From Candidatus Latescibacterota bacterium (GTDB lineage: Bacteria > Latescibacterota > UBA2968 > UBA8231), in the NCBI GenBank assembly GCA_965261395.1, contig OZ253462.1, positions 2,720,001 through 2,784,000 of the forward strand: a stretch of DNA of 64,000 nt, read 5' to 3'. The position numbers and the translations under genes are program-made. Of this stretch, positions 1-10,940 are shown piece by piece. The notes beneath the pieces were generated by a model that was given only the letters and a program-made list of their open reading frames with translations, made no database searches and was not told the DNA's origin. Within the stretch, counting starts at the first letter, position 1. Each line of letters opens with the position of its first letter.

Positions 1-519
1 GTAGCGCGTGCGGACTACGAAGCGCCAAGGCTTCTTGCCGAACACGATGCCGAGGCCGGCCAGTGCGCCGAGCTTCTTTTTATTGACTTCTTCGTCAAAG
101 CCGGGCAGGCTGAGGCTCACCTTGTATATCTGGAAGTTGAGGGACGGTCCGACATCGACGAAAGCGCGCGTCGTCTGCGCTGCATCGTTGAGGAACACCC
201 TTGCGTGTACGGGCACACTGACGGTCGTCACGTCTATGCTGCCGTTCACCGAGGATAGCCCATCTGAGAAAAAGAAGGAGTTTTTCGCAGTAAAGCCGCC
301 GATGCCCCCTACCAGAGCCACGCTGGGGGTGATCTGCGTGCCCATATCCCAGTCGATATGGGACCACGTGCCGATCCCGTTCAGGTCGTCGAGGCTGTCG
401 TCGAACACGACTTTCTGGGCGTAGAGATAGCCCCAGTTAAAGGTGCTCATGTGCTGGGCGGTGGCGGGATATGCGCCGAAGGATAGAGCCAAGCAGCAGG
501 CGAAGATGGTGCGGATCAC
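1..519 (-). CDS. Secreted outer-membrane beta-barrel-like protein (3' end runs off the window)
   Basis: Not in the ORF track. Manual translation from GTG at 519 (RBS AGGAGG upstream) gives MIRTIFACCLALSFGAYPATAQ..., a signal peptide followed by amphipathic beta-strand patterns (RAFVDVGPSLNF, LGALAGLGIVF). Frame is open to the window edge. Confidence 0.6.
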   Translation of the reverse strand, partial: MIRTIFACCLALSFGAYPATAQHMSTFNWGYLYAQKVVFDDSLDDLNGIGTWSHIDWDMGTQITPSVALVGGIGGFTAKNSFFFSDGLSSVNGSIDVTTVSVPVHARVFLNDAAQTTRAFVDVGPSLNFQIYKVSLSLPGFDEEVNKKKLGALAGLGIVFGKKPWRFVVRTRY

Positions 520-554
520 GGTGTCCTCCTATGGGTTGAGATGAGTTGTTTTAC

Positions 555-591
555 TCAACAGTAGCCCACAGGTGCGACAGATCGCGTCGCA
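555..591 (-). promoter_or_regulatory. Putative WYL-regulator box 1 plus -10 element
   Basis: TGCGAC-agatcgc-GTCGCA at 573-591. Minus strand reads TGTCGC-N10-TACTGT, upstream of CDS 1..519. Confidence 0.7.
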
Positions 592-671
592 GGCGGAGTT
601 TTTTACGGGGAAATGTCTCCTCCTTTTTGCATTTTGCGGCGGGCGTCAATTACATCGAATGCTCGCGCTAA

Positions 672-1724
672 CTAACTGACGGTCCCCTGTTCGGAGAGGC
701 GCGTCGCAACTTTTTGCAGCAACTCCTCCAAGCGACCCAGGCGCTCGATAGTGGCGTCCATGTTCAAGGCACCGTTGCAGTCAACGGCAAACCAAGGTCC
801 TTGTTCATCAAACATGACGTTTGCAACCGCTGCAGCACCGCCACCCCTGAACGCGCCCGCCTTTTCGATACGGATGTCGTCAAAAGCCTCCTCGTTCAAG
901 GCATCAAGGACTTGGTACATGAATGGGCTGCGAACTTTGTCCAAGGCATTTCCCGATCCAAGCCGGACAGTCAAACGCATCGCATCATGAATTTGCATAT
1001 AGAGGTCAGCGTACCGGTTTTCTGTTCCTATATACTTGAAGCCCAACCAACAGCCGAGGAATCCTCCAGCCGGATTTGGGATATAACCCCAACCACAATC
1101 ACCGCCCCACCTGCGTTCTATCTCGGCATAGAAGCCCTCCCATTGTGTCCACTCCCACTCGTCGTAGCTCGCAGATTCCCACCTGTTCGTATCGTCCTCC
1201 CAACCTTGAAGATAGGTGCGAAAATCGTCCACAATGACATTTCTCGTGTCCTGAAATCCGTTCAGAACCTCGAGAAGATCGCGGCGTAGGAAACGGCCGC
1301 ATCTGCTCTCATTTGGAAGGCTGGCTTTCGATTCGTTTCCCGTCTTGAGGTATACCGCAACCAAGCGATCATATTGGCCGCTGTACTTCTCCCTTGCGGT
1401 CTCTATATGGCCTTCAATCTGGTTCGGGCCCTCTTGGGCGCTCACCTTGTCTTCGATGATCAAGAGGATGCCACGCTCGCCAGCGTTGATCAGCACGAGA
1501 ATGTCAATCCGGTTGACTTGGGTCTCAATGCAAAGCGTCCCGATCTGTGGGAGATCCACTTCGTGCGTCTGAAGGAGTGAACGCAATAATTCGGTGCCGA
1601 GGGTGTGGAGACACGGATGCGATTCGCGGTATGCCGGGTCGGCCCACGCCAAGAGATATGCAATGGTAGCATCCTGTGCGAGTTCCTTTGTTGCGAATCC
1701 GTACAGATTAGGGGTGGTCGTCAT
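672..1724 (-). CDS. PD-(D/E)XK nuclease superfamily protein
   Basis: RIDILVLIN...LLIIEDKV catalytic-like motif; N-terminal ATKELAQDA and later VYLKTG are typical of this family. Confidence 0.7.
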   Translation of the reverse strand: MTTTPNLYGFATKELAQDATIAYLLAWADPAYRESHPCLHTLGTELLRSLLQTHEVDLPQIGTLCIETQVNRIDILVLINAGERGILLIIEDKVSAQEGPNQIEGHIETAREKYSGQYDRLVAVYLKTGNESKASLPNESRCGRFLRRDLLEVLNGFQDTRNVIVDDFRTYLQGWEDDTNRWESASYDEWEWTQWEGFYAEIERRWGGDCGWGYIPNPAGGFLGCWLGFKYIGTENRYADLYMQIHDAMRLTVRLGSGNALDKVRSPFMYQVLDALNEEAFDDIRIEKAGAFRGGGAAAVANVMFDEQGPWFAVDCNGALNMDATIERLGRLEELLQKVATRLSEQGTVS

Positions 1725-1769
1725 GCGACATCTTCCTTTCCATGAGATTGATAAAAGAAAACGGCCATG

Positions 1770-2735
1770 CTATTGGGGCGGGCTAACCAAACGCTCGGCA
1801 AGCTCTAGCGCATCCACCGGCCAGTAGCACTCTGGGCGAGGTCGATAGACATTGGGATCCCCTTCCTTCGGTCGACAGTTCAAGAGCTGGTTCACCCACC
1901 GTTCGGGGACGGCTTCTCGTCCATGCACTGCACCCAGAAGCGCTCCGCAGATGGCGGCGTTGGTGTCGGTATCACCGCCCCTATGGACGGTGTCTACGAC
2001 AGCTTCCTCGAAATTCTCGGTGTGGAGCAGTTGCCATAGCGCATTGCGGAGCGCAGTCAGAACCCAGCCCTGCTGGTGCATATAATCCGCGGGTGGTGCC
2101 GTAGCCGCGCCGTCGATAGCTGACATGAGCGTCGGTTCCGCTGGGATCTTCGCAGCCCACGTTTTTATTCGTTCGTACAGCTCCTGCGGTTCGCATCCGG
2201 TGCTGATCGCGTAGGCGATTGCCGAGGCGTAGAGCGAGTTAGCTTGCTGGCAGACCGGATGGGGATGCGTGAGTGCTGCGTCCTCGCACGCCCATTCCGC
2301 CACCTGTTCGAAGCCGTAGTTCGCGCCGAAGATGCCCAGCGGGCTGATCCGCATCATGGCTCCATTCGCTTGGCTGTTCTGATCCCGTTTCCCTTGGAGA
2401 CCGCTGCGGGTGGTGAAACCGCAGTCGAATGGATCAGAGTTCAACCAGCCAATATAGGCTTTGAGGACAAGCGTTTGATCGTATTTCTTGTGCTCCGCCA
2501 GTACCCGGGCTAGGGCTAGCGCCATTTCGGAATCGTCCGTCGGCTGCCCGGCAATCGTGTCCCAGGCTCCGCCGTCTGCGAGATCTCGGACTCCGGCGGG
2601 GTACTCGCGCTGAATATCCTCGGAGCTTTGGAATTCCACTAGGCTACCCAGCGAATCCCCGGCAAGTTGGCCTAGCAAGCAACCTTGGGCGCGAAAGAGG
2701 ATGCGGTCTCTTTGCATATTAGTCATTGTAATCAT
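1770..2735 (-). CDS. ADP-ribosylglycohydrolase (DraG/ARH family)
   Basis: GQLAGDSLG, GQPTDDSEM, ANGAMMRISP, LTHPHP and GGDTDTNAAICGALLGA motifs. Confidence 0.92.
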   Translation of the reverse strand: MITMTNMQRDRILFRAQGCLLGQLAGDSLGSLVEFQSSEDIQREYPAGVRDLADGGAWDTIAGQPTDDSEMALALARVLAEHKKYDQTLVLKAYIGWLNSDPFDCGFTTRSGLQGKRDQNSQANGAMMRISPLGIFGANYGFEQVAEWACEDAALTHPHPVCQQANSLYASAIAYAISTGCEPQELYERIKTWAAKIPAEPTLMSAIDGAATAPPADYMHQQGWVLTALRNALWQLLHTENFEEAVVDTVHRGGDTDTNAAICGALLGAVHGREAVPERWVNQLLNCRPKEGDPNVYRPRPECYWPVDALELAERLVSPPQ

Positions 2736-2766
2736 CCAATCATCCCTTCATTATCCATATCCATAA

Positions 2767-4848
2767 TCAAAAGCCCATCCTGCGCGAATGGTTCGGCTTG
2801 GCTCCGCACTCGGCGCACAACAATTCAGCGAGAGCCTTCGCATCCTGTAGGTGGCCGAGGATTTCGGCTTTTCGGCGGACTACGGCGAAATCGCCTGGAG
2901 TTAGGGTGGTGAGGTCGCCGACTTCGGGCGGAGCTTCGAGCGCGAAATAGGTATGGAACGCCACCTGCGACTGGTCGGGGGTGAGATAGTCGAGCGCGAT
3001 TTTGAAGGTGAAGCGGCGCAGGGTGGCCGGGTCGAGGTTTTCGCCGAAGTTGGTCGTACATGCGAACGGCAGGGGGTGGCTCTCCATCCAAGTCAGCATT
3101 TCGTTGACTTGGCTGACCTCCCAGGAGCGCACGGCACCCCGGCGGTCGGCGAGCAGGGAGTCGGCCTCATCGAAGACGAGAATGGAGCCTTCGGCGCGTG
3201 CCTCTGCAAAGGCGGCGGCGATCTGCTGTTCGGTTTGGCCGACCCACATCGACATCAGATCGGAGGCCCGCTTTTGGGTGACTTGGAGGCCGAGGCGTCC
3301 GGCTAGGTAGCGGACGAATGCGCTCTTGCCGGTGCCGGGCGGACCTTGCAGACAGAGAGAAAAATGCTTGCCACCGTTTTTTACGATGCTTTCCGCGAAT
3401 CCGACCGGGTCGATGTCGGCCCGGATCAGGACGGGGTCGAATCTCTCGGGTGCTCCCAGATTCGCGGGGGGCTTCTCACCCACAATTACTTGGGACAGGC
3501 TGCGCACGCCAAGGCGCACTGTGGTGAGGTCGCCGCCACAGAGGCTCGCGGCGGCGATGGCCCCAGATGCTACTCCCGGCGTCACATCGAACTCCTTGGC
3601 CAGGGAGCGCGTATCCTCCTCTGTCGCTTTGATATCGTGGCGTGCCAACTCCCGTTTCCAAATGCGCGCCCGGACTTGAGAAGGCGGCTGGCGCAGCTCT
3701 AGGGCGAAGGTCATGCGGCGCAGGACGGTGTGACAGGTCTCCCGGGCGGAGTTTGAGGTCCACAGCGTTGGTACCGGTGTGCGTTCGAGCAGCCGGTTTA
3801 GGAACACCTTGGAGCCGCCGGACCGGAGATGGGAAAAGCCGCCCGGCGAAAACGACATCCAGCTCGAGCTTGGGTCCGAGAGGACGTCCTCCATCTCGTC
3901 AAAGAGCAGAATTGACCCACGGCCCGGCGATAGCAGGCGCTGGGCGAGCCGGAGTTCCTGGAGTCGCTCGCGCCGGTCGGGATCGCGGCCTCGCTCGTCC
4001 TCTTCGCCGACACTGTAGAGGTTCACCCCGAGCCGGGCGGCCAGCGTCTTGCAAAACTCGGTCTTGCCAGTCCCCGGTGGGCCGTACACCAAGATGTTCA
4101 CGCCCGGTGTGCCAGTTGATAGTGCGCCCTTGACCAACTTTTCGATGTGGTCGCGTTCTTCCGCCACGTGATCGAAATCTGCCCACTCCAGCTCGCCCGG
4201 AGTTGCCGTGTCGAGCAGCAGGCGACACACGTCGAGATCGCTGTCGCCTGGGGCGGAGACCAGCCGGAGTAGTCGCTTGACGATCTCGATGTCGCCGTCG
4301 TCATCGACGGACACAAGCCCCGACTTCACGAGCGGTGCATCGGCCGCGAAGCGGGCACGGAATGCGCCAGCCGGTATGCCGAAAATGCAGGGTAGGACGG
4401 GGTGCGTGACGTTGAAAAATCTATGTCCGTGGTAGTGACGGCCAGATTCGAAAGAGTCGATCAGCGACACAAAGATCGGCTGCGTTTCGTGGCGCAGCAA
4501 AATCTCTAGGATCGCGATGTCCTCCGGCGCGAGGTCCATCTCCCGCCCGAACCGCCGGAGCAGTCGCGCCGTGTGATCTTTTCTCTCGCTTTCGCAGGCT
4601 GCTGCGTGCTCTTTTTCTAGGGTTTTCCGCAGGTGCTTCCATTCCCGAGCAGACAATTCCTTTTCGTGATGTCCGCCCGCTTGGTGCTCGTCCGACTCCT
4701 CGTTTTCGTCCTCAAATGCGAGGAGATCGCGGTTCTCGGCGACCCATTCGGCCAGATCTTCCTTCTTTCCCGGGAAGGCGCGGTGGAAGCGCAAGGCGGC
4801 GTTGGAGAGGTAAAAGAGAATAAGCTGTCGTTCGTAGGCGTTGAGCAT
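2767..4848 (-). CDS. AAA+ ATPase with two AAA modules
   Basis: Walker A GPPGTGKT with Walker B LLFDEMED, and a second GPPGTGKS with LVFDEADS; C-terminal RRMGF. Confidence 0.9.
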   Translation of the reverse strand: MLNAYERQLILFYLSNAALRFHRAFPGKKEDLAEWVAENRDLLAFEDENEESDEHQAGGHHEKELSAREWKHLRKTLEKEHAAACESERKDHTARLLRRFGREMDLAPEDIAILEILLRHETQPIFVSLIDSFESGRHYHGHRFFNVTHPVLPCIFGIPAGAFRARFAADAPLVKSGLVSVDDDGDIEIVKRLLRLVSAPGDSDLDVCRLLLDTATPGELEWADFDHVAEERDHIEKLVKGALSTGTPGVNILVYGPPGTGKTEFCKTLAARLGVNLYSVGEEDERGRDPDRRERLQELRLAQRLLSPGRGSILLFDEMEDVLSDPSSSWMSFSPGGFSHLRSGGSKVFLNRLLERTPVPTLWTSNSARETCHTVLRRMTFALELRQPPSQVRARIWKRELARHDIKATEEDTRSLAKEFDVTPGVASGAIAAASLCGGDLTTVRLGVRSLSQVIVGEKPPANLGAPERFDPVLIRADIDPVGFAESIVKNGGKHFSLCLQGPPGTGKSAFVRYLAGRLGLQVTQKRASDLMSMWVGQTEQQIAAAFAEARAEGSILVFDEADSLLADRRGAVRSWEVSQVNEMLTWMESHPLPFACTTNFGENLDPATLRRFTFKIALDYLTPDQSQVAFHTYFALEAPPEVGDLTTLTPGDFAVVRRKAEILGHLQDAKALAELLCAECGAKPNHSRRMGF

Positions 4849-4875
4849 GGTTTCTTCTCCGAGATAACACGGTAC

Positions 4876-5346
4876 TTACTGCGATACTAAAATCGCCAGA
4901 TCGACATTCATGCCATCAAAAAATGACTCTACCGCGACAGATAGAAGATCCCTGTTAGAGTCTACGATTAGGAGAAAACCCTCGGCGACGACGAGGAGCG
5001 GCGTCTCCAACTCGTTTTCTTCGGGTACGATCGATACCGCATACACTAAGAGATAGTCAAGCGGCATGTATACTACTGCGTCAGACCCGAGGTTGGGGAA
5101 TCCTGCCTTGAGATAAAGGGCTTGGAAGGTTGTTGGCGTTATCCGGTCATCCTCGATGAAGATGTTGCCGTCCTCGTCATAGAGTGAACGGGACAGTTGC
5201 CGCTCGATGACGACCCCTTCCCTGGGTGGTCCGGTTTCACCCTGTGGCCCTTGCGGACCCACTGGCCCCATCGGTCCCGCCGGACCTTCGCAGGCGACAA
5301 GACCGAAGGCCAACATAGTTACGAAAAAAGAAAAGCGAGTAAGCAC
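4876..5346 (-). CDS. Lipoprotein with short collagen-like (GXY) repeat
   Basis: Likely start GTG 5346 with RBS GAAGGAGG; lipobox LVAC followed by GPAGPMGPVGPQGPQGETGP. Confidence 0.75.
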   Translation of the reverse strand: MLTRFSFFVTMLAFGLVACEGPAGPMGPVGPQGPQGETGPPREGVVIERQLSRSLYDEDGNIFIEDDRITPTTFQALYLKAGFPNLGSDAVVYMPLDYLLVYAVSIVPEENELETPLLVVAEGFLLIVDSNRDLLSVAVESFFDGMNVDLAILVSQ

Positions 5347-5374
5347 TGCACACCTCCTTCTAGTTGTTGTAAAA

Positions 5375-5411
5375 GGAAACTTACCTAGGAGGCGCGACAG
5401 ATCATGTCGCA
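5375..5411 (-). promoter_or_regulatory. Putative WYL-regulator box 2 plus -10 element
   Basis: cGCGAC-agatcat-GTCGCA at 5393-5411; minus strand TGTCGC-N10-TAAGTT. Confidence 0.7.
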
Positions 5412-5682
5412 GATGGAAATTTTTTATAAAAGGATCGATTTTCGTCAAAATCGTCCGTCTGACCGCGTTGCGGCCAAGGGCTATCGGACCGGGAAAGGGG
5501 TCTTGTAATAAATAGGCACTGGATGGTCTAGGGAAATTTGTCGGGAATAGTCGGCGCATGAGAGCGCTTAGGACGCACCTTCAAGAGGCATGTGTCGATG
5601 GGGCAGGAGGAAGAGGAGGCTCTGGCTTTAGGGGGTCCTTGCGACCAACAGCATTAGATTGTCCAGAGCAACAAGCAGTTTT

Positions 5683-6045
5683 TTATGCGTGTTTCAACTC
5701 CAACAAAAGATCAAAAAGAGCTTCTGCTGCCTTGAGGATCGACTTGTCATCAGACCAAATCGGATGGCCCTCAATCTGACTTTCATAATCCGCGTTACAT
5801 GGTTCGCAGTACGTAAAAAGATCAATGTTATTTTTGATCAAAGTCTTGATTTTGGCAACCATCCCGTCTCTGTCCATAAGGACTCCATCCTCAAATAAGG
5901 CCAAGAGAGCAAAGGCCGCCTGCTCGACATCGTAGGAATCGGTCTCACCAAAAAGTTCGTCGCCGCAATAACTGCAGCGAGAGTGAACTTCGATATTGTC
6001 CTCGATTAGCTTCTCGACTTTGGCGAGCTTCTCTTTTCTGGTCAT
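5683..6045 (-). CDS. Hypothetical protein made of two internal repeats, each with CxxC
   Basis: RBS GGAG upstream; CSYC and CEPC in two homologous halves. Confidence 0.65.
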   Translation of the reverse strand: MTRKEKLAKVEKLIEDNIEVHSRCSYCGDELFGETDSYDVEQAAFALLALFEDGVLMDRDGMVAKIKTLIKNNIDLFTYCEPCNADYESQIEGHPIWSDDKSILKAAEALFDLLLELKHA

Positions 6046-6135
6046 CTCAGGCTCCGTTTAGGCTTTAAAGAGGATTATGAGGATGTCGCCGTCCTCGTCA
6101 GAGAGAATTAGACAAACTCCGCTTAATCTTAATGG

Positions 6136-6172
6136 ATGAATTTACCTAGGAGGTGCGACAGATCGCGTCGCA
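6136..6172 (-). promoter_or_regulatory. Putative WYL-regulator box 3 plus -10 element
   Basis: TGCGAC-agatcgc-GTCGCA at 6154-6172; minus strand TGTCGC-N10-TAAATT. Confidence 0.7.
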
Positions 6173-6289
6173 GGCAGAATTTTTTACAAGGTGCTAGCGT
6201 CAGGCTCGCTTTGATGATATCCGAGGCGGCGTGAACCGGGCTTAATCAGTTGGGAAGTGGCTAATTGAACAGAATACGTAGAGGCCAAT

Positions 6290-6985
6290 TCATGGCCAAG
6301 ACACGTCACACATAGTGCTGACGTCTATGAACAGGTCTTTTACGTTCTCGGAGACCCACCGGGAGTGGGGTATGCCGAGATGCTTGGTGGCGAGCGCGAT
6401 TGCGGTCTCCCATCCTTCCTGCGATACGGGATTACGGACCGTCTGGTCGTTTACGAAATAGACGAACACTAGAAAGGCATTGAGTCTGTTTAATTTCCTC
6501 AGTAGGTAGAGGTGCGCTAGCCTGTTGGTGTATTGGTAGAAGCATTGCGACCAGTCCGTTGAGGACTTGACACCCAGAAACTCCTTGGTCTCCGTCAGCG
6601 CCGCCTTGATTTTCTTGAGGGAGGTTCCCGTCGCACCAGTGGGATTGGTGTCGAACTCGGGGATATTCGCCTTAGCTTCCAGCAGCAGGAGACATCCACT
6701 GCTAGTCAGAGCCAGACCGTCCCATCGGGGGCCACTATTAGGCCAGAAGTCCTTGAGTGGTCGCTTGTCGAGACTCTCACCGAGACGCTTTATGAATTGT
6801 TCGTCTCGGTATTCGACGAAGCCGTCGCATTCCAACGGCGAAAGCCACTCGATCTTTTCACTGGAGCAGAGGCCAAGTTCGTTGACGATGGTCGAGTTTA
6901 TGACTTCGGGGCAGCGGTTGACAGCTATCTGCAGCCAACGTTGGCTGCCGCGTTGGGCTGCAGACTGTTCTACTTTCATATCCAT
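6290..6985 (-). CDS. Hypothetical protein, restriction-endonuclease-like (PD-(D/E)XK) fold
   Basis: PRWDGLA...LLLEAKA and FYQYTNRLAHL motifs; RBS AGGAG. Confidence 0.6.
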   Translation of the reverse strand: MDMKVEQSAAQRGSQRWLQIAVNRCPEVINSTIVNELGLCSSEKIEWLSPLECDGFVEYRDEQFIKRLGESLDKRPLKDFWPNSGPRWDGLALTSSGCLLLLEAKANIPEFDTNPTGATGTSLKKIKAALTETKEFLGVKSSTDWSQCFYQYTNRLAHLYLLRKLNRLNAFLVFVYFVNDQTVRNPVSQEGWETAIALATKHLGIPHSRWVSENVKDLFIDVSTMCDVSWP

Positions 6986-7009
6986 CTCCTTTTCTAGTGT
7001 TAGTAACGG

Positions 7010-7047
7010 ATGAATCTACTTAGGAGATGCGACAGATCACGTCGCAT
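7010..7047 (-). promoter_or_regulatory. Putative WYL-regulator box 4 plus -10 element, overlapping the WYL gene stop codon
   Basis: ATGCGAC-agatcac-GTCGCAT at 7027-7047; minus strand TGTCGC-N10-TAGATT. Confidence 0.7.
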
Positions 7048-8026
7048 CCTCGTCATCCAACCCCAGCGCCGCCCACATCTCCTCTCGCACCGCCGCCCGC
7101 AATTCCTCCGGCTCCAGCACCTCAGCCGCCGCTCCAAAGCTCAACACCCAACTCTTGATCTCGTAGAACCCCCCAGCCCGCAGCCGCAGCACCACCCGCC
7201 CGTCCTCCAGCTCTTCCAGCTCCTGGCTCGGATGCCAAATCCGCTCCCGTATGTAGGGTGCCTGCTCCTCGGTGAACCGAACCACCACATCCATCGGCTC
7301 CTCGGATGAGATGCCGAACGCATTGCTCAATCGTTCGTCAACCGACAGGTGATCCGGCGGCTCGAATTCCTCCTCGGTCACTTCCACCGACTCAAAGCGG
7401 TCCACCGCCTGCGTGATGAGTTGGTCGTAGTAGGGCATCCGCGAAATCACGTATAGACCGCCCCGATGCGGCAGGAGATGCAGCGGTTCGATGTTGTACT
7501 GACGGGCTTCCTCCGCCCATGGCGATCGGTAGCTCACCCAGCACACTCGGCGCTCCAGTATGGCCTCGTGCAGGTTTTCAAGCACTTCGCGGGCGTCCTC
7601 ATAAGACTTCTTGTGTCCCCGGATATGTGGCACATAAGCCTCCGTGGCTCGCTCTAGGAATTGCTGCATCTTCGGGGGCATGGCATCTTTCAGCCTGCTA
7701 CTCACCGATTCCAAGTGCTCGCCGAACGGAGTCCCCACCAGCCCCATGCCCGCCCGCTCGGCGAAGATCATCGCCGCGATTTCCATGATCGGAAAGTTTA
7801 GCGGTAGCCCGGTGTCCTTTTTTAGTTGGTAGTAGATGGTCCGATCGGTAGGCGGTCCTTCTATCCAAAACCCTACCTCACGCAGGTCCCACATATCGCG
7901 CTGTATAGTTTTCCTATCTACTTTGTACTCGGCCGCCAGTTCGCGTGCGCTCTTCCCGCCACGATTAGCCTCCAGCGTCCGCAGGATGCCCAGTTGTCGC
8001 ACAATCTGCTTCATCGTCTGCTTCAT
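7037..8026 (-). CDS. HTH-WYL-WCX transcriptional regulator (PafB/PafC/DriD-like)
   Basis: N-terminal HTH (ARELAAEYKVDRKTIQRDM), WYL core (IEPLHL...GLYV...AVDRF), C-terminal WCX (WVLSFGAAAEVLEPEELR). Confidence 0.92.
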   Translation of the reverse strand: MKQTMKQIVRQLGILRTLEANRGGKSARELAAEYKVDRKTIQRDMWDLREVGFWIEGPPTDRTIYYQLKKDTGLPLNFPIMEIAAMIFAERAGMGLVGTPFGEHLESVSSRLKDAMPPKMQQFLERATEAYVPHIRGHKKSYEDAREVLENLHEAILERRVCWVSYRSPWAEEARQYNIEPLHLLPHRGGLYVISRMPYYDQLITQAVDRFESVEVTEEEFEPPDHLSVDERLSNAFGISSEEPMDVVVRFTEEQAPYIRERIWHPSQELEELEDGRVVLRLRAGGFYEIKSWVLSFGAAAEVLEPEELRAAVREEMWAALGLDDEDAT

Positions 8027-8039
8027 CGGGTCAACTCCC

Positions 8040-8732
8040 CTATCCCGCCGCTCGGCTCACTAAGTGCTCAAAGAGCTTCGACCAAATCGTCCCAGGCATT
8101 CGCTCCGGGTGAAACTGCACGCCGGTCAAGCGGCCATCCGCGCTCTCAACCGCCTCCACGACGCCATCGCCGCTGCGCCCGCTGACGCCCAAGCCCGCGC
8201 CGGGCCGGTCAATGGCCTGCAGGTGATAAGAGTTGACCCGCGAAGGGCTGGCATGGCCCAGCGCGGCCAGCATCGTGCCCGGCTCTACCTGGAGATCGTG
8301 CTCGATGCGCTCGGCCTCGGCCCGCTGGGGCGAATGCGGATCAACGCCGAGCTGGGCCTCCACATCCGCCCAAATCGTACCGCCCAAATCGGCGCTGATA
8401 AACTGCATTCCGTAGCAGATGCCCAAAACCGGCAGCTGGCGCTCTTGCGCGGCCGCAAAGCTCCAGCGGTCGGCTTGGTCGCGCTTGGTTGCCACCGGCG
8501 GTAGATCGCTGGGCAGGGTGCCGATCAGGCCGCGCTCAATGCCTGGGCCGCCGGTGATCAACAGACCGTCGATGCGCTCGAGTACCGCTTGCAGTGGAGT
8601 GCGCTCTGTCGTCATCGGCAGCACCAGCGGAGCCCCGCCCGCCTGTACCACCGCGTCCACGTAGTGGTGGTCGAGGGTTTGCTGGCCATCGGCGTTTAGG
8701 CTGCTGGTGATGCCGATGAGCGGGCGGGACAT
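8040..8732 (-). CDS. Peptidase C26 / gamma-glutamyl-GABA hydrolase family glutamine amidotransferase
   Basis: Start MSRPLIGIT overlaps the upstream stop (TGATG); LGICYGMQ, VNSYHLQAI and GVQFHPE triad motifs. Confidence 0.9.
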   Translation of the reverse strand: MSRPLIGITSSLNADGQQTLDHHYVDAVVQAGGAPLVLPMTTERTPLQAVLERIDGLLITGGPGIERGLIGTLPSDLPPVATKRDQADRWSFAAAQERQLPVLGICYGMQFISADLGGTIWADVEAQLGVDPHSPQRAEAERIEHDLQVEPGTMLAALGHASPSRVNSYHLQAIDRPGAGLGVSGRSGDGVVEAVESADGRLTGVQFHPERMPGTIWSKLFEHLVSRAAG

Positions 8733-10033
8733 CAGACGCCGGCCTTGAGCCTTGCGAAGGAGACCTTGTCGTCGAGGAGGACCAGGGCCGCAAAGCTCTC
8801 GATATCGGTGCGCGAGGCGTCGAGCCGGGAAACGGCGTTGCGCAAGAAGTCCTGCTGCCGGTCGTTGCGCGGGCCAGCGGTCAGGAGCCGTTGGGTAAAC
8901 TCCGCCTTGTCTTCCTCGCTCTTGCCGGAGAGCCGCTCGCCCAGCCACGCCACTAGCGCCTCGTCGGTTCCGTTGGCTGCAATCGCCTCGGCGAAGGCTT
9001 CTTGGTTGATGCCGAGAAAGTCCAGCACTGCACGGTCGAAACCCGAATCTTCGCCGCACCAGTAATCGCCTAAACAATTGCAGTGCGCCGCGCGGAATTT
9101 GTCGATCATCCGCGCGAGGCAGGCGAGGCCGCCGACGCTCAGATCAAACGGGCTGCGCGGTGGGTGCCGGCGCAAGTCCGTCAGCCCAAAGCTCAACTCG
9201 TCGTCGAGGTCTTGCAGGTCGAAGAAGCTCTGGACATCCCCGCGCTCGGGCGCGACCTCGGCGCGGCGCATCTTCAGTCGCTCGTGCATCTCGCCGTAGC
9301 GGCCGACGTTGGCGCGCCAAGCGTTGAAGATGCTTTTGTCGGCGGCCGACTTCTCGCAGCGTTCGGCGACCCACTCGCTCAGCTCGTCGTCGTTGGGATT
9401 TTCGTACGCAGCTTGGCGAAAGGCATCTTCCCCAATGCCCAAGAAATCCAAAATGGCCGCGTCTTGGCTGGAATCGGCACCGAAGCGGTACTCGCCTAAC
9501 TTGCCATAGGTCACCGCCCGCGCCTTGTCGGCCATGCGCGCCGCGCCGGCCACGCCGAAGACGCTGCGGAGGTACGGGCTGCGTGGCGGCTGGGCGGTCA
9601 GGTCTAAGTCCCTGAATGCACCCCAGTCGTCCAATTCAATGGAGGCGAAGACCGTCTTGATGTCCGTGCGCTCCGGGGCGTACTTGGCGATCCGCTCGAC
9701 GAGCAGCCGCTCGTGCAGTTCGTCTTGCGGCTCGCGGGTGAGGTGTTCCTCGTTGAAGGTATCGATCTCCCCTTGACTCTTCTGGGCTCTTTCCAGCGCC
9801 AATACGCCCAGAACCTCGTCGTCCAGTTCGTCGACGGCCTCGGCGAACTCGGCGGCGTTCATATTGATAAATTCGAGCACTTCGACGTCGAGGCCGGAAT
9901 CGTCTCCGTACTTGAACTCGCCGATGGCCTCGGCGTTGTGGCCGCGCGCTTTGTCGATCATGCGCGCCAGCCCGATGATGCCGGCGACGCCGGCGTTGGA
10001 GGGTCGGCGGGGCGGTTGTCTCGTTAAATCCAT
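8732..10033 (-). CDS. Protein of three tandem DUF5069-like domains
   Basis: Three repeats of DL..PPR.P...G...LARM.DK.R...LG.Y..G.DS..D...L.F. Confidence 0.75.
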   Translation of the reverse strand: MDLTRQPPRRPSNAGVAGIIGLARMIDKARGHNAEAIGEFKYGDDSGLDVEVLEFINMNAAEFAEAVDELDDEVLGVLALERAQKSQGEIDTFNEEHLTREPQDELHERLLVERIAKYAPERTDIKTVFASIELDDWGAFRDLDLTAQPPRSPYLRSVFGVAGAARMADKARAVTYGKLGEYRFGADSSQDAAILDFLGIGEDAFRQAAYENPNDDELSEWVAERCEKSAADKSIFNAWRANVGRYGEMHERLKMRRAEVAPERGDVQSFFDLQDLDDELSFGLTDLRRHPPRSPFDLSVGGLACLARMIDKFRAAHCNCLGDYWCGEDSGFDRAVLDFLGINQEAFAEAIAANGTDEALVAWLGERLSGKSEEDKAEFTQRLLTAGPRNDRQQDFLRNAVSRLDASRTDIESFAALVLLDDKVSFARLKAGV

Positions 10034-10098
10034 GGATTAGCTCCTAGGTTTTGGGGTGAAGGTTTTCAATATACCAACCGCAGACCGGTCGGCAATGT

Positions 10099-10127
10099 TT
10101 GACGCCTCTACAGGCGGCTTCTATACT
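10099..10127 (+). promoter_or_regulatory. Sigma70 promoter of mutM (probably leaderless)
   Basis: TTGACG-17 bp-TATACT, 6 nt before ATG 10134, no SD sequence. Confidence 0.65.
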
Positions 10128-10133
10128 CTGCCC

Positions 10134-10940
10134 ATGCCCGAGTTGCCCGAGGTAGAAACCGTCCGCAGCGCGATGGAGTGCCACCTGCTAGGCCGGCCGA
10201 TCACCCGCATCCGCGTCAGTACAAAACGCCTGCGCGAGCCTTTGCCGAGGGCCGCGTTGCGCTCCTTGGTCGGGGATTGCTTTGCGGCCGCTCGCCGCCG
10301 CGCCAAGTTCCTCCTCCTCGACCTGCAATCGGGCCGAACGCTCTTGGTCCATCTCGGCATGAGCGGCAACCTACTCCTGCGGCCGTGGGGCACCAAGCAC
10401 GACCACGTGGGCTTTGAGTTTGCCGACGGGGGGGCCATGGCGTTCAACGACCCTCGGCGCTTTGGTCTGGTGCTGGTGCTCGACGAGGGCGAGGAGCACA
10501 CGTGCCGCTACTTGCAAAACCTCGGCCCCGAGCCGCTCTCCCGCGCCTTCAACGCCCGCTATCTCCAAGCCCAATGCCAGCGGCGCAAAAGCCCGATCAA
10601 GAACCTCATTATGGACAACCGCACGGTCGTTGGCGTGGGCAATATCTACGCCAGCGAGGCCCTCTTCCGGGCGCGCATTCACCCGGCGACTCCGGCCGCG
10701 GCCATTGAGCCGCTGCGCTTGGCCCTGCTCGCCAAGGAGATCAAAAAGGTGCTGCGCGTCGCCATTGATCAGGGCGGCACGACCATCAGCGACTATCGGG
10801 GATCGGGTGCGGGCGGGCGCTTTCAGCAGCGGCTCCACGTGTACGGCCGCCAAGGCGAGGACTGCCGCGTCTGCGACGCACCCATCGAAAGCCTCTACCT
10901 GGGAGGCCGCAACACCTTCTATTGCCCGAGTTGCCAATAA
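10134..10940 (+). CDS. mutM: Formamidopyrimidine-DNA glycosylase
   Basis: MPELPEVE N-terminus, HLGMSG, GVGNIYASE and C-terminal zinc finger CRVC...CPSCQ. Confidence 0.97.
   Translation: MPELPEVETVRSAMECHLLGRPITRIRVSTKRLREPLPRAALRSLVGDCFAAARRRAKFLLLDLQSGRTLLVHLGMSGNLLLRPWGTKHDHVGFEFADGGAMAFNDPRRFGLVLVLDEGEEHTCRYLQNLGPEPLSRAFNARYLQAQCQRRKSPIKNLIMDNRTVVGVGNIYASEALFRARIHPATPAAAIEPLRLALLAKEIKKVLRVAIDQGGTTISDYRGSGAGGRFQQRLHVYGRQGEDCRVCDAPIESLYLGGRNTFYCPSCQ

Follow-up and report, generated by a model that had tools for sequence, protein, structure and literature searches.

Four palindromic boxes as putative operator-promoters of a probable DriD-type WYL activator on an accessory island of an uncultured Latescibacterota bacterium

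We analyzed a 64,000-nucleotide (nt) stretch of DNA from Candidatus Latescibacterota bacterium, here called the window, which covers positions 2,720,001-2,784,000 of a genome held on one contig of 6,549,484 bases (G000). Within the first 8 kb of the window, four perfect copies of a palindromic box stand before genes for two nuclease-like proteins, a double-AAA ATPase, an ADP-ribosylglycohydrolase and several small or envelope-type proteins, next to the gene of a transcriptional regulator with a WYL domain. Comparison with related genomes and with plasmids makes it very likely that the boxes are operators bound by the adjacent WYL protein, and we consider it probable that they serve as operator-promoters of an activator of the kind described for Caulobacter DriD. 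On these sequence comparisons the locus is most likely a real local regulon under the control of an activator, and it is well supported as a further example of the recently described DriD-type switch rather than as a new regulatory principle. As an in-silico WYL regulon it is unusually clean: its operators are perfect, absent elsewhere in 6.5 Mb, and co-vary with the regulator across two genera. With it, the promoter design known from DriD reaches an uncultured phylum.

Four perfect boxes in one locus

Searching the window with YGCGACAGATCNNGTCGCA at up to two mismatches returned four matches, all without any mismatch, against a mean of 0.07 in 100 shuffles, none of which reached four. These are the copies that the original prediction had placed at 573, 5393, 6154 and 7028 (boxes 1-4, Table 1); all lie within 6.5 kb of each other and follow the plus-strand pattern YGCGAC-AGATCNN-GTCGCA. 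On the minus strand, which carries every gene in window positions 1-8026, the arms read TGCGAC and GTCGCA (CGCGAC and GTCGCG in box 2), and the 7-nt spacer ends in GATCT. The further details of that prediction also held on inspection. All four boxes read TGTCGC-N10-TA-N3-T on the minus strand upstream of minus-strand gene starts, boxes 1-3 share a run of six A upstream, and box 4 covers the TGA stop codon of the WYL gene.

The boxes are also unique in the genome. A scan of the whole contig with GCGACAGATCNNGTCGC at up to one mismatch, with the reversed pattern as control, found five matches: the four window boxes, which are exact, and one site with a single mismatch 490 kb away. No other exact copy occurs in the 6.55-Mb genome, and the reversed control gave zero. 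Because there are only four exact copies and the control is empty, a scattered repeat resembling repetitive extragenic palindromic (REP) elements is excluded; such genome-wide scatter had been raised beforehand as one objection, and the scan found none. The bare skeleton GCGAC-N7-GTCGC at one mismatch matched eight times in the window against 5.4 expected, so that nothing beyond the four boxes is enriched. The loose promoter pattern TGTCGC-N10-TANNNT occurs at 39 sites genome-wide against 32 for its reversed control, and thus gives no sign of further targets outside the island in this genome. Rfam, searched with window positions 1-10500 at E-values up to 1, returned no match. Among sequencing runs, the stretch was listed in six contig-type DNA records from two studies and in no RNA run.

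The spacer has a peculiarity of its own. GATC lies inside the spacer of every box in this genus, half a base pair off the dyad, and is not found in the boxes of the sister genus or of plasmids. As to a possible methylation switch, the genome shows neither avoidance nor enrichment of GATC (observed/expected 0.925) and encodes one open reading frame (ORF) for a D12-class adenine methyltransferase, at C1:2433121.

The boxes stand in the place of a -35 hexamer

A TAnnnT hexamer lies 9 nt past the box in 4/4 window sites on the minus strand, and the start codons at 519, 5346, 6045 and 6985 follow this hexamer after 38, 31, 93 and 27 nt, respectively. None of the four window promoters has a recognizable -35 hexamer or a TG extended -10. 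Upstream of boxes 1-3, at a distance of 7-8 nt, the minus strand has a run of six A.

The same arrangement recurs in the 55 distinct box contexts that we collected from this genome and its relatives, taking all loci fetched. The hexamer 9 nt after GTCGCA is TAnnnT in 43 contexts and nAnnnT in seven more, with neither in the remaining five, and the best -35 match at 16-18 nt spacing has at most three of six positions in 54/55. In 33 contexts there is an A-run whose end lies 7-9 nt upstream of the box, and in 31 a Shine-Dalgarno sequence and start codon come 20-40 nt after the hexamer. The box is written over the WYL stop codon in 15 contexts, which have no A-run because the upstream DNA there is coding. 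If transcription starts about 7 nt past the hexamer, each box would span about -40 to -22, with its proximal half TGTCGC at -28 to -23, and in three of the four promoters the A-run would fall at about -48 to -55. This geometry supports the view that the boxes take the place of the -35 hexamer at a fixed distance from the -10 hexamer.

Box and WYL gene travel together

We searched 61 genomes for the box, 30 of them congeners. The exact box is present in 16/30 congeners, in clusters of up to six copies that all lie on one strand within each cluster, and the reversed control pattern was absent from all 61 genomes. A WYL orthologue with at least 74% identity is found in 15/30 congeners. Box and WYL gene occur together in 14 congeners, the box alone in two (G026 and G027), the WYL gene alone in one (G025, where it is broken by stops), and neither in 13; since the genomes are kin, we use this table descriptively and attach no test to it. 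The linkage to WYL orthologues that had been proposed as a check is therefore seen in 14 of the 16 box-bearing congeners. The two genomes with boxes alone are 94% (G027, L045) and 93% (G026) complete, and in G027 a box directly follows the Peptidase_C26 gene.

More independent evidence comes from G054, which belongs to another family. One of its loci carries a WYL gene of 83% identity and, with it, two boxes of the present type, and a second locus carries a 48% identical WYL paralogue, typical of its genus, with the variant box of that genus. The sister clade, genus g8, was surveyed at 12 WYL loci, with five genomes searched for further box copies. Its WYL proteins are 43-49% identical to the one in the window, and a box variant stands right after the stop codon in 11/12 loci. 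Nine of the 11 have CGAC-N7-GTCATA-N9-TATCTT (or TATGTT), one locus combines a DriD-like ACGAC-N7-GTCGTA with an RRTIER recognition helix, and the remaining loci comprise one with a diverged box copy and one without a box. The g8 proteins end in ...FYKKT, and the codons of this tail supply the A-run. Two of the five genomes searched have arrays of further variant copies, which stand before a PIN-domain pair and McrB/McrC genes. The geometry is kept while the half-site changes with the protein, which points to a functional protein-DNA pair rather than to inherited sequence. Taken together with the congeners and the plasmid loci described below, the g8 variants bear out the proposal that the boxes are putative operator-promoters tied to the adjacent WYL gene.

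In g8 (L088-L098) we also observed a GC-rich hairpin followed by a T-run, resembling an intrinsic terminator, directly after the variant box and hexamer. A start about 7 nt past the hexamer would fall in the left arm of this hairpin, and the same leader has no T-run in the arrays that precede the PIN and McrBC genes.

Cassette content between boxes differs widely among the congeners. A lipoprotein-AAA core is followed by the hydrolase, by a sub-threshold REase-ARP protein (which replaces the hydrolase in G020; E 6.4e-6, 26.4 bits with the cut-off at 27) or by a PDDEXK_4 protein. Another cassette pairs a protein of unknown function with a PDDEXK_4 protein that matches the PADLOC candidate PDC-S26 at 3.1e-23, and the congeners further hold several unknown proteins as well as AbiEi/AbiEii adjoining the WYL gene. 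G010 and G020 have an additional half-site (CTGCGACATGC) directly upstream of the complete box that precedes the lipoprotein gene, perhaps an auxiliary half-site or a scar left by recombination.

The regulator is a distant relative of DriD

The WYL gene encodes 329 residues with HTH_11 (Pfam E 3.5e-7), WYL (3.1e-13) and WCX (5.2e-23) domains. Its orthologues begin at the second methionine, which would put the start at 8014. No box precedes the gene. It lies 13 nt past the Peptidase_C26 gene, and with so short a gap it is probably read through from the DUF5069/Peptidase_C26 operon. The 345-residue ORF listed for Peptidase_C26 is over-extended: its orthologues have 230 residues, which would move the start to 8732, where it overlaps the final base of the DUF5069 gene.

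By sequence, the best solved relatives of the protein (phmmer against PDB) are the DriD entries 9PFQ and 8TP8 at 8e-13, with PafBC at 0.08 and no match to CapW or BrxR up to E 10. A structural model built on 22 sequences gave the same order in Foldseek: DriD 2.3e-16, PafBC 1.8e-12, BrxR 1.1e-5 and CapW 2.7e-5. The CapW/BrxR values range from 1.1e-5 to 3.4e-4, which reflects a common fold class at a much greater distance than DriD. The model has helices at 80-91, 100-115 and 118-135 between the HTH and WYL domains, in the place of the DriD three-helix bundle. In an alignment of about 22% identity, the recognition helix R-K-T-I-Q-R is placed opposite R-R-T-A-E-R of DriD, and DriD residues R37, E40 and R41 align to K, Q and R here and to R, Q and R in the orthologues. 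The RWHVR motif of CapW/BrxR is not found in the protein, which reads HRGGLYVISR at that place. By both sequence and model, then, the WYL protein is a distant relative of Caulobacter DriD, and its palindromic site suggests that it acts as a homodimer.

The same box precedes AAA-WYL loci on proteobacterial plasmids

A tblastn search with the AAA protein of the island retrieved 86 plasmid records, and we inspected ten loci. An annotated WYL gene lies within 5 kb of the AAA homologue in nine of these ten proteobacterial loci (Leisingera, Fuscovulum, Sphingobium, Novosphingobium, Rhodoferax, Pantoea, Diaphorobacter, Thiodictyon and Methylomonas); the Croceicoccus locus has no annotated WYL gene within that distance. 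The neighbors of the ATPase include PD-(D/E)XK or DUF2779 proteins, macro, HEPN, PLD and SNF2 proteins and, at two loci, an ADP-ribosylglycohydrolase.

In 7/10 loci there is a box that departs from TGCGAC-N7-GTCGCA at no more than two positions, in five of them at no more than one, and it stands 21-151 nt before the ATPase gene or before a small gene ahead of it. Several of these boxes have an nAnnnT hexamer 9 nt on. By our own arithmetic, the chance of a one-mismatch box in a 150-nt window is about 0.0007 per locus. Leisingera, Sphingobium and Croceicoccus have no box with two or fewer mismatches before the AAA gene. The same box thus precedes a conserved double-AAA ATPase beside WYL genes in Alpha-, Beta- and Gammaproteobacteria. 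A literature search pairing WYL with DUF2779 found no paper, and one on WYL in Latescibacter gave papers that were unrelated, judged by title and the start of the abstract.

An accessory island with nuclease, ATPase and hydrolase cargo

The limits of the island were set by comparison with three congeners that have no box (G004, G008 and G011), all of which break synteny at the WYL start. G008 is without G000 positions 2,715,368-2,728,038, and the break falls exactly at the junction of the Peptidase_C26 stop and the WYL start. The resulting accessory island of 12.7 kb comprises the WYL gene, the four box-driven units, a DnaB helicase gene, an HTH_3 gene, a Phd/ParE pair and a gene fusing an extracytoplasmic function (ECF) sigma factor to tetratricopeptide repeats (TPR). 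The fusion protein has 558 residues, with sigma regions 2 and 4 of the ECF type. The island varies between strains and includes toxin-antitoxin pairs.

The original prediction had called the regulon self-contained. In this genome it is indeed confined to the island; the description does not carry over to G003, G018, G022 and G030, which have boxes at unlinked loci. The gene list that it gave for the array was correct, as Pfam, translations and models recovered two PD-(D/E)XK-like proteins, a double-AAA ATPase, an ADP-ribosylglycohydrolase, a CxxC protein, a lipoprotein and an outer-membrane-protein-like (OMP-like) protein (Table 1).

Table 1. Features of the WYL island and related loci; positions are those of the window unless a contig or locus label is given.
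Feature	Position	Strand	Remarks
OMP-like protein, 198 residues	1-519	minus	signal peptide; runs off window, full gene in L079
Box 1 -10-like hexamer, TACTGT	563-558	minus	
Box 1	573-591	minus	predicted promoter of OMP-like gene; GATC spacer 579-585
A-run of box 1	599-604	minus	
PDDEXK_4 nuclease-family protein, 350 residues	672-1724	minus	last gene of operon; Pfam E 1.4e-9
ADP-ribosylglycohydrolase, 321 residues	1770-2735	minus	Pfam ADP_ribosyl_GH 2e-66
ATPase, 693 residues	2767-4848	minus	winged-helix N-terminal part and two AAA domains
Lipoprotein, 156 residues	4876-5346	minus	GTG start, lipobox LVAC; read from translation
Box 2 -10-like hexamer, TAAGTT	5383-5378	minus	
Box 2	5393-5411	minus	predicted promoter of lipoprotein-AAA-ADP-ribosylglycohydrolase-nuclease operon; GATC spacer 5399-5405
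A-run of box 2	5420-5425	minus	
CxxC protein, 120 residues	5683-6045	minus	two CxxC motifs (CSYC, CEPC)
Box 3 -10-like hexamer, TAAATT	6144-6139	minus	
Box 3	6154-6172	minus	predicted promoter of CxxC gene; GATC spacer 6160-6166
A-run of box 3	6180-6185	minus	
Probable PD-(D/E)XK-fold nuclease, 231 residues	6290-6985	minus	large unnamed family
Box 4 -10-like hexamer, TAGATT	7018-7013	minus	
Box 4, TGCGAC-GTGATCT-GTCGCA	7028-7046	minus	predicted promoter of 231-residue gene; GATC spacer 7034-7040
Stop codon of WYL gene, TGA	7037-7039	minus	covered by box 4
HTH_11-WYL-WCX regulator, 329 residues	7037-8026	minus	first gene of island
Peptidase_C26 ORF as listed	8040-9077		
DUF5069 gene	8732-10033		
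Second DnaB helicase	G000 C1:2718557-2719912 (L079 6555-7913)		just left of window; DnaB_C 3.1e-89
ECF sigma-TPR fusion	L079 3617-5293		inside island
Extra half-sites	L035 about 6760 and 15525; L040 about 9130	promoter strand	

The 231-residue protein behind box 4 has no Pfam match, and neither a name nor a Pfam domain was found in its family of at least 1004 homologues at E 1e-5 or better, the best 120 of which are 57-100% identical. Residues D89, E103, A104 and K105 are invariant in 36 aligned homologues. Its model (predicted local distance difference test, pLDDT, 87.7) has the Shedu nuclease and NucS in the top Foldseek rows (E 0.04-0.09). VIA-align gave Z-scores of 7.2 for NucS, 6.8 for BstEII and 6.4 for SfsA, values below 8 that lend moderate support only. 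The matches are mostly PD-(D/E)XK nucleases at modest scores, and the model suggests that the protein is probably a nuclease of this fold. An atlas search with the same protein led to clusters that in part carry DUF6946. For the small CxxC protein behind box 3 no family was found; the best score of its atlas search, 0.80, was uninformative.

The operon behind box 2 opens with the lipoprotein, which has seven collagen-like G-x-y triplets straight after the lipobox cysteine. Most congeners keep its gene at the head of the AAA operon, which is unexpected company for a cytoplasmic ATPase. The ATPase matches Pfam AAA in two stretches (1.4e-33) and WHD (4.6e-5), has a GPPGTGK Walker A and an hhhhDE Walker B motif in both AAA domains, and shows partial matches to IetA/IteA far under the cut-off. 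The hydrolase is DraG/Tri1-like and the equivalog of neither (NCBIfam DraG 142.9 bits against a cut-off of 337), and the PDDEXK_4 protein weakly matches PADLOC PDC-S26 (1.8e-7).

The OMP-like protein behind box 1 matches OMP_b-brl_2 (PF13568) at E 0.0046, below the family cut-off. Its gene was found in 7/22 congeners searched (in one as a remnant), and all seven bear boxes. Just 10 nt behind it lies the island DnaB gene, which box 1 probably also drives. This helicase is 70% identical to the other DnaB of the genome, at 4.68 Mb. In the five congeners without the box that we searched, the one DnaB is of the 4.68-Mb type; it shares 68-72% identity with the island copy and lies far from the Peptidase_C26 gene. 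A 450-residue gene that clusters with DnaB genes directly follows a box in G009 and G028. As a whole, the predicted products make the cargo look like defense genes.

Proposed mechanism and alternative readings

In the mechanism that we propose, the regulator would be made constitutively by read-through from the upstream DUF5069/Peptidase_C26 genes and, like DriD, would have no box of its own. Binding of a stress ligand to the WYL domain would let the dimer occupy the boxes and bring RNA polymerase to four promoters that are weak on their own; these would be of the sigma-70 type with a TAnnnT -10 and neither a -35 hexamer nor an extended -10. The likeliest ligand would be single-stranded DNA (ssDNA) from damage or phage replication, and an ADP-ribose-related ligand is also possible. 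Four units would then be switched on: the PD-(D/E)XK-fold protein; the small CxxC protein; the operon of lipoprotein, double-AAA ATPase, ADP-ribosylglycohydrolase and PDDEXK_4 nuclease; and the envelope protein with the accessory DnaB helicase. We infer activation rather than repression, as well as the ligand and a role in defense or damage response, the role from gene content; candidate roles are a damage response, phage defense or reversal of ADP-ribosylation.

Several observations weigh against this proposal. The WYL model is only moderately confident (pLDDT 74.5, predicted template modeling score 0.53). When the DriD residues that contact ssDNA are mapped by hand at about 22% identity, four of the 11 are kept (Y168, R176, R189 and Y192) and seven are changed (S172, R178, R204, W206, R207, Y240 and R288), which makes ssDNA sensing uncertain. 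The same hand mapping turns the DriD contacts to RNA polymerase A20, R121 and P125 into Arg, Pro and Gln, so that the set of polymerase contacts is conserved only in part. The 55 box contexts come from close relatives and are not independent, and G026 and G027 keep exact boxes with no WYL homologue found at E 1e-10 or better. Furthermore, a palindrome at -40 to -22 would suit a repressor equally well, the A-run might provide basal activity as an UP element, and the WYL factors of ADP-ribosylglycohydrolase systems are called negative regulators (PMC9503650).

These last points lead to the alternative of a repressor in the style of CapW/BrxR, which would sit on the promoters in unstressed cells and leave on binding ssDNA or an ADP-ribose-derived ligand, so that the island is de-repressed. 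The box does cover the position where sigma region 4 would sit, the A-run could provide promoter strength without an activator, and many defense systems are described as guarded by WYL repressors (PMC11662680). However, a -35 hexamer is at most half matched in nearly all contexts, and the window promoters have no TG extended -10; the protein is without RWHVR and shows no sequence match to CapW/BrxR up to E 10, and its fold matches to them are at E 1e-5 to 3e-4 against 2e-16 for DriD. A weak further argument comes from G026 and G027, which keep boxes before nuclease and ATPase genes without the regulator: such a state would be borne more readily if the genes fall silent once the regulator is lost than if they are released. 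We regard repression as unlikely, though it is the main rival reading.

That the boxes are primarily recombination or cassette-boundary sites, integron- or Xer-like, and not transcription signals is highly improbable. The great differences in cassette content among congeners and the half-site duplication just upstream of the box in G010 and G020 would fit such sites. Yet Pfam found no recombinase gene in the island, with several island proteins lacking any Pfam match, the clustered boxes all point with their downstream genes, have the -10 hexamer at a single constant spacing and are soon followed by a start codon, and on plasmids of other phyla single AAA genes have the same box in front of them. 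The shuffling of cassettes would be explained as a by-product of homologous recombination between the repeated promoters. Hardly any weight attaches, finally, to a box bound by the ECF sigma-TPR protein or the HTH_3 antitoxin encoded in the same 12.7 kb, or to a REP-like selfish repeat, as an ECF promoter would show a -35/-10 layout and not a 6-7-6 palindrome, the box goes with the WYL gene in 14 of the 16 box-bearing congeners and on plasmids where ECF/HTH_3 genes are not annotated, and the genome shows no scatter of exact copies.

A wider reading joins the island to the plasmid loci. The double-AAA ATPase, the WYL factor and an exchangeable nuclease, joined or not by the ADP-ribosylglycohydrolase, would form an autonomous inducible module against phages or plasmids that occurs across phyla, with the -35-replacing box as its portable plug. 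We offer this tentatively, as a possibility that is rather doubtful at present. If true, any acquired cassette carrying the box would join the same alarm circuit, which would explain why each island cassette, including the extra DnaB and the envelope proteins, has its own box copy. The WYL pocket, diverged from that of DriD, may sense a signal other than ssDNA, e.g., an ADP-ribose-derived product made by phage ADP-ribosyltransferases. This cross-phylum AAA-WYL-nuclease module is the most useful lead: several of the proteobacterial hosts can be cultured, among them Pantoea sp. At-9b (plasmid pPAT9B03), Rhodoferax antarcticus, Novosphingobium humi and Sphingobium yanoikuyae, so that the cargo of AAA ATPase, nuclease and ADP-ribosylglycohydrolase could be tested there, including a prediction of anti-ADP-ribosylation function made in 2022.

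Comparison with known systems

The closest parallel is DriD, whose layout of winged helix-turn-helix (wHTH), helical linker, WYL and WCX domains is shared by the present protein (PMC9186387, PMC10853764, PMC13004042). As described in 2026, the DriD site ATACGAC-N7-GTCGTAT covers the -35 position and keeps one fixed distance to the -10, DriD promoters have no good -35 hexamers, the driD gene is not under the control of DriD, and its linker contains a three-helix bundle (PMC13004042); R37, E40 and R41 are given as its base-contacting residues (PMC10853764). The CGAC-N7-GTCG core, the overlap with the -35 position at a fixed -10 distance and the missing box before the regulator gene are all found here as well. 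By our own reading of the promoter oligonucleotides printed there, GTCGCA-9 nt-CAATCT and GGCGCA-9 nt-CAAGGT, the GTCGCA-N9-nAnnnT spacing is also the same (PMC13004042). The targets are of the same kind, with DriD boxes reported before bapE, dnaG and recJ and the present ones before nuclease genes and an extra dnaB, and each regulon includes an outer-membrane target, a TonB-dependent transporter in Caulobacter and the OMP-like protein here.

The two systems differ in that the proteins are only about 22% identical, the box flanks are TG/CA here and TA/TA in DriD, the spacer contains GC with GATC here and is AT-rich in DriD, and 7/11 ssDNA-contact residues are changed. The regulon in this genome of an uncultured Latescibacterota is confined to one accessory island, and its first regulated promoter overlies the stop codon of the regulator itself. 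We also considered whether the AAA ATPase is the gene beside Caulobacter driD; this was ruled out, as that operon is described as encoding an unknown protein and a TonB-dependent transporter (PMC13004042).

PafBC recognizes tGTCgg-N10-tA-N3-T, with the element at -23 to -28 (PMC8635444). TGTCGC stands at the place of tGTCgg in 4/4 window sites, N10 before tA-N3-T, and again there is no -35. In contrast, PafBC is described as a heterodimer with only PafB on DNA, at a single half-site, whereas here one WYL gene goes with a full palindrome. The original prediction had seen a new, hybrid DriD/PafBC combination in these sites. This part does not stand, since published DriD promoters already show the same geometry (PMC13004042): the proximal half of the DriD box and the PafBC element occupy the same place, and the supposed hybrid is the normal DriD layout.

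CapW/BrxR repressors of the cyclic-oligonucleotide-based anti-phage signaling system (CBASS), of bacteriophage exclusion (BREX) and of other systems are reported to carry the RWHVR motif in the WYL domain (PMC11662680). They share with the present case a homodimeric wHTH-WYL-WCX layout and a palindromic site of about 20 bp beside defense-type genes, and they differ in that motif, in their great distance by sequence and fold, and in the promoters without -35 seen here.

The cargo, in turn, recalls the ADP-ribosylglycohydrolase-centered systems with WYL or Nudix factors, restriction endonuclease (REase) effectors and helicases for which Iyer et al. (2022, PMC9503650) predicted a role against ADP-ribosylation by phages, assuming a negative regulator that senses ADP-ribose. 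Both have an ADP-ribosylglycohydrolase, an HTH-WYL factor, variable REase-fold effectors and linked helicases. A coupled phosphatase, given there for a little over 55% of systems and not obligatory, has no counterpart here: Pfam detected neither a rhodanese-type or other phosphatase nor ARPP or vWA/SseB/TY chaperones among the proteins of the island and the congener cassettes. A general Pfam scan, in which three island proteins had no match of any kind, placed no island protein in an ADP-ribosyltransferase or sirtuin family, and the hydrolase of the predicted systems likewise has no such enzyme linked to it. The partner here is a double-AAA ATPase, which the main text of PMC9503650 does not mention. 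The idea that the system is undescribed therefore holds in part: WYL-regulated ADP-ribosylglycohydrolase systems had been predicted in 2022, and the AAA ATPase is not part of that text.

Two further WYL activators resemble, by their description, the one proposed here. SiwR of M. smegmatis is a homodimeric activator of adjacent genes that acts via the -26 region on a purely local regulon (PMC10693628). DdaA of Moraxellaceae directly activates DNA-damage and anti-phage genes (PMC12392091), in a genome-wide network that contrasts with the four-promoter island described here.

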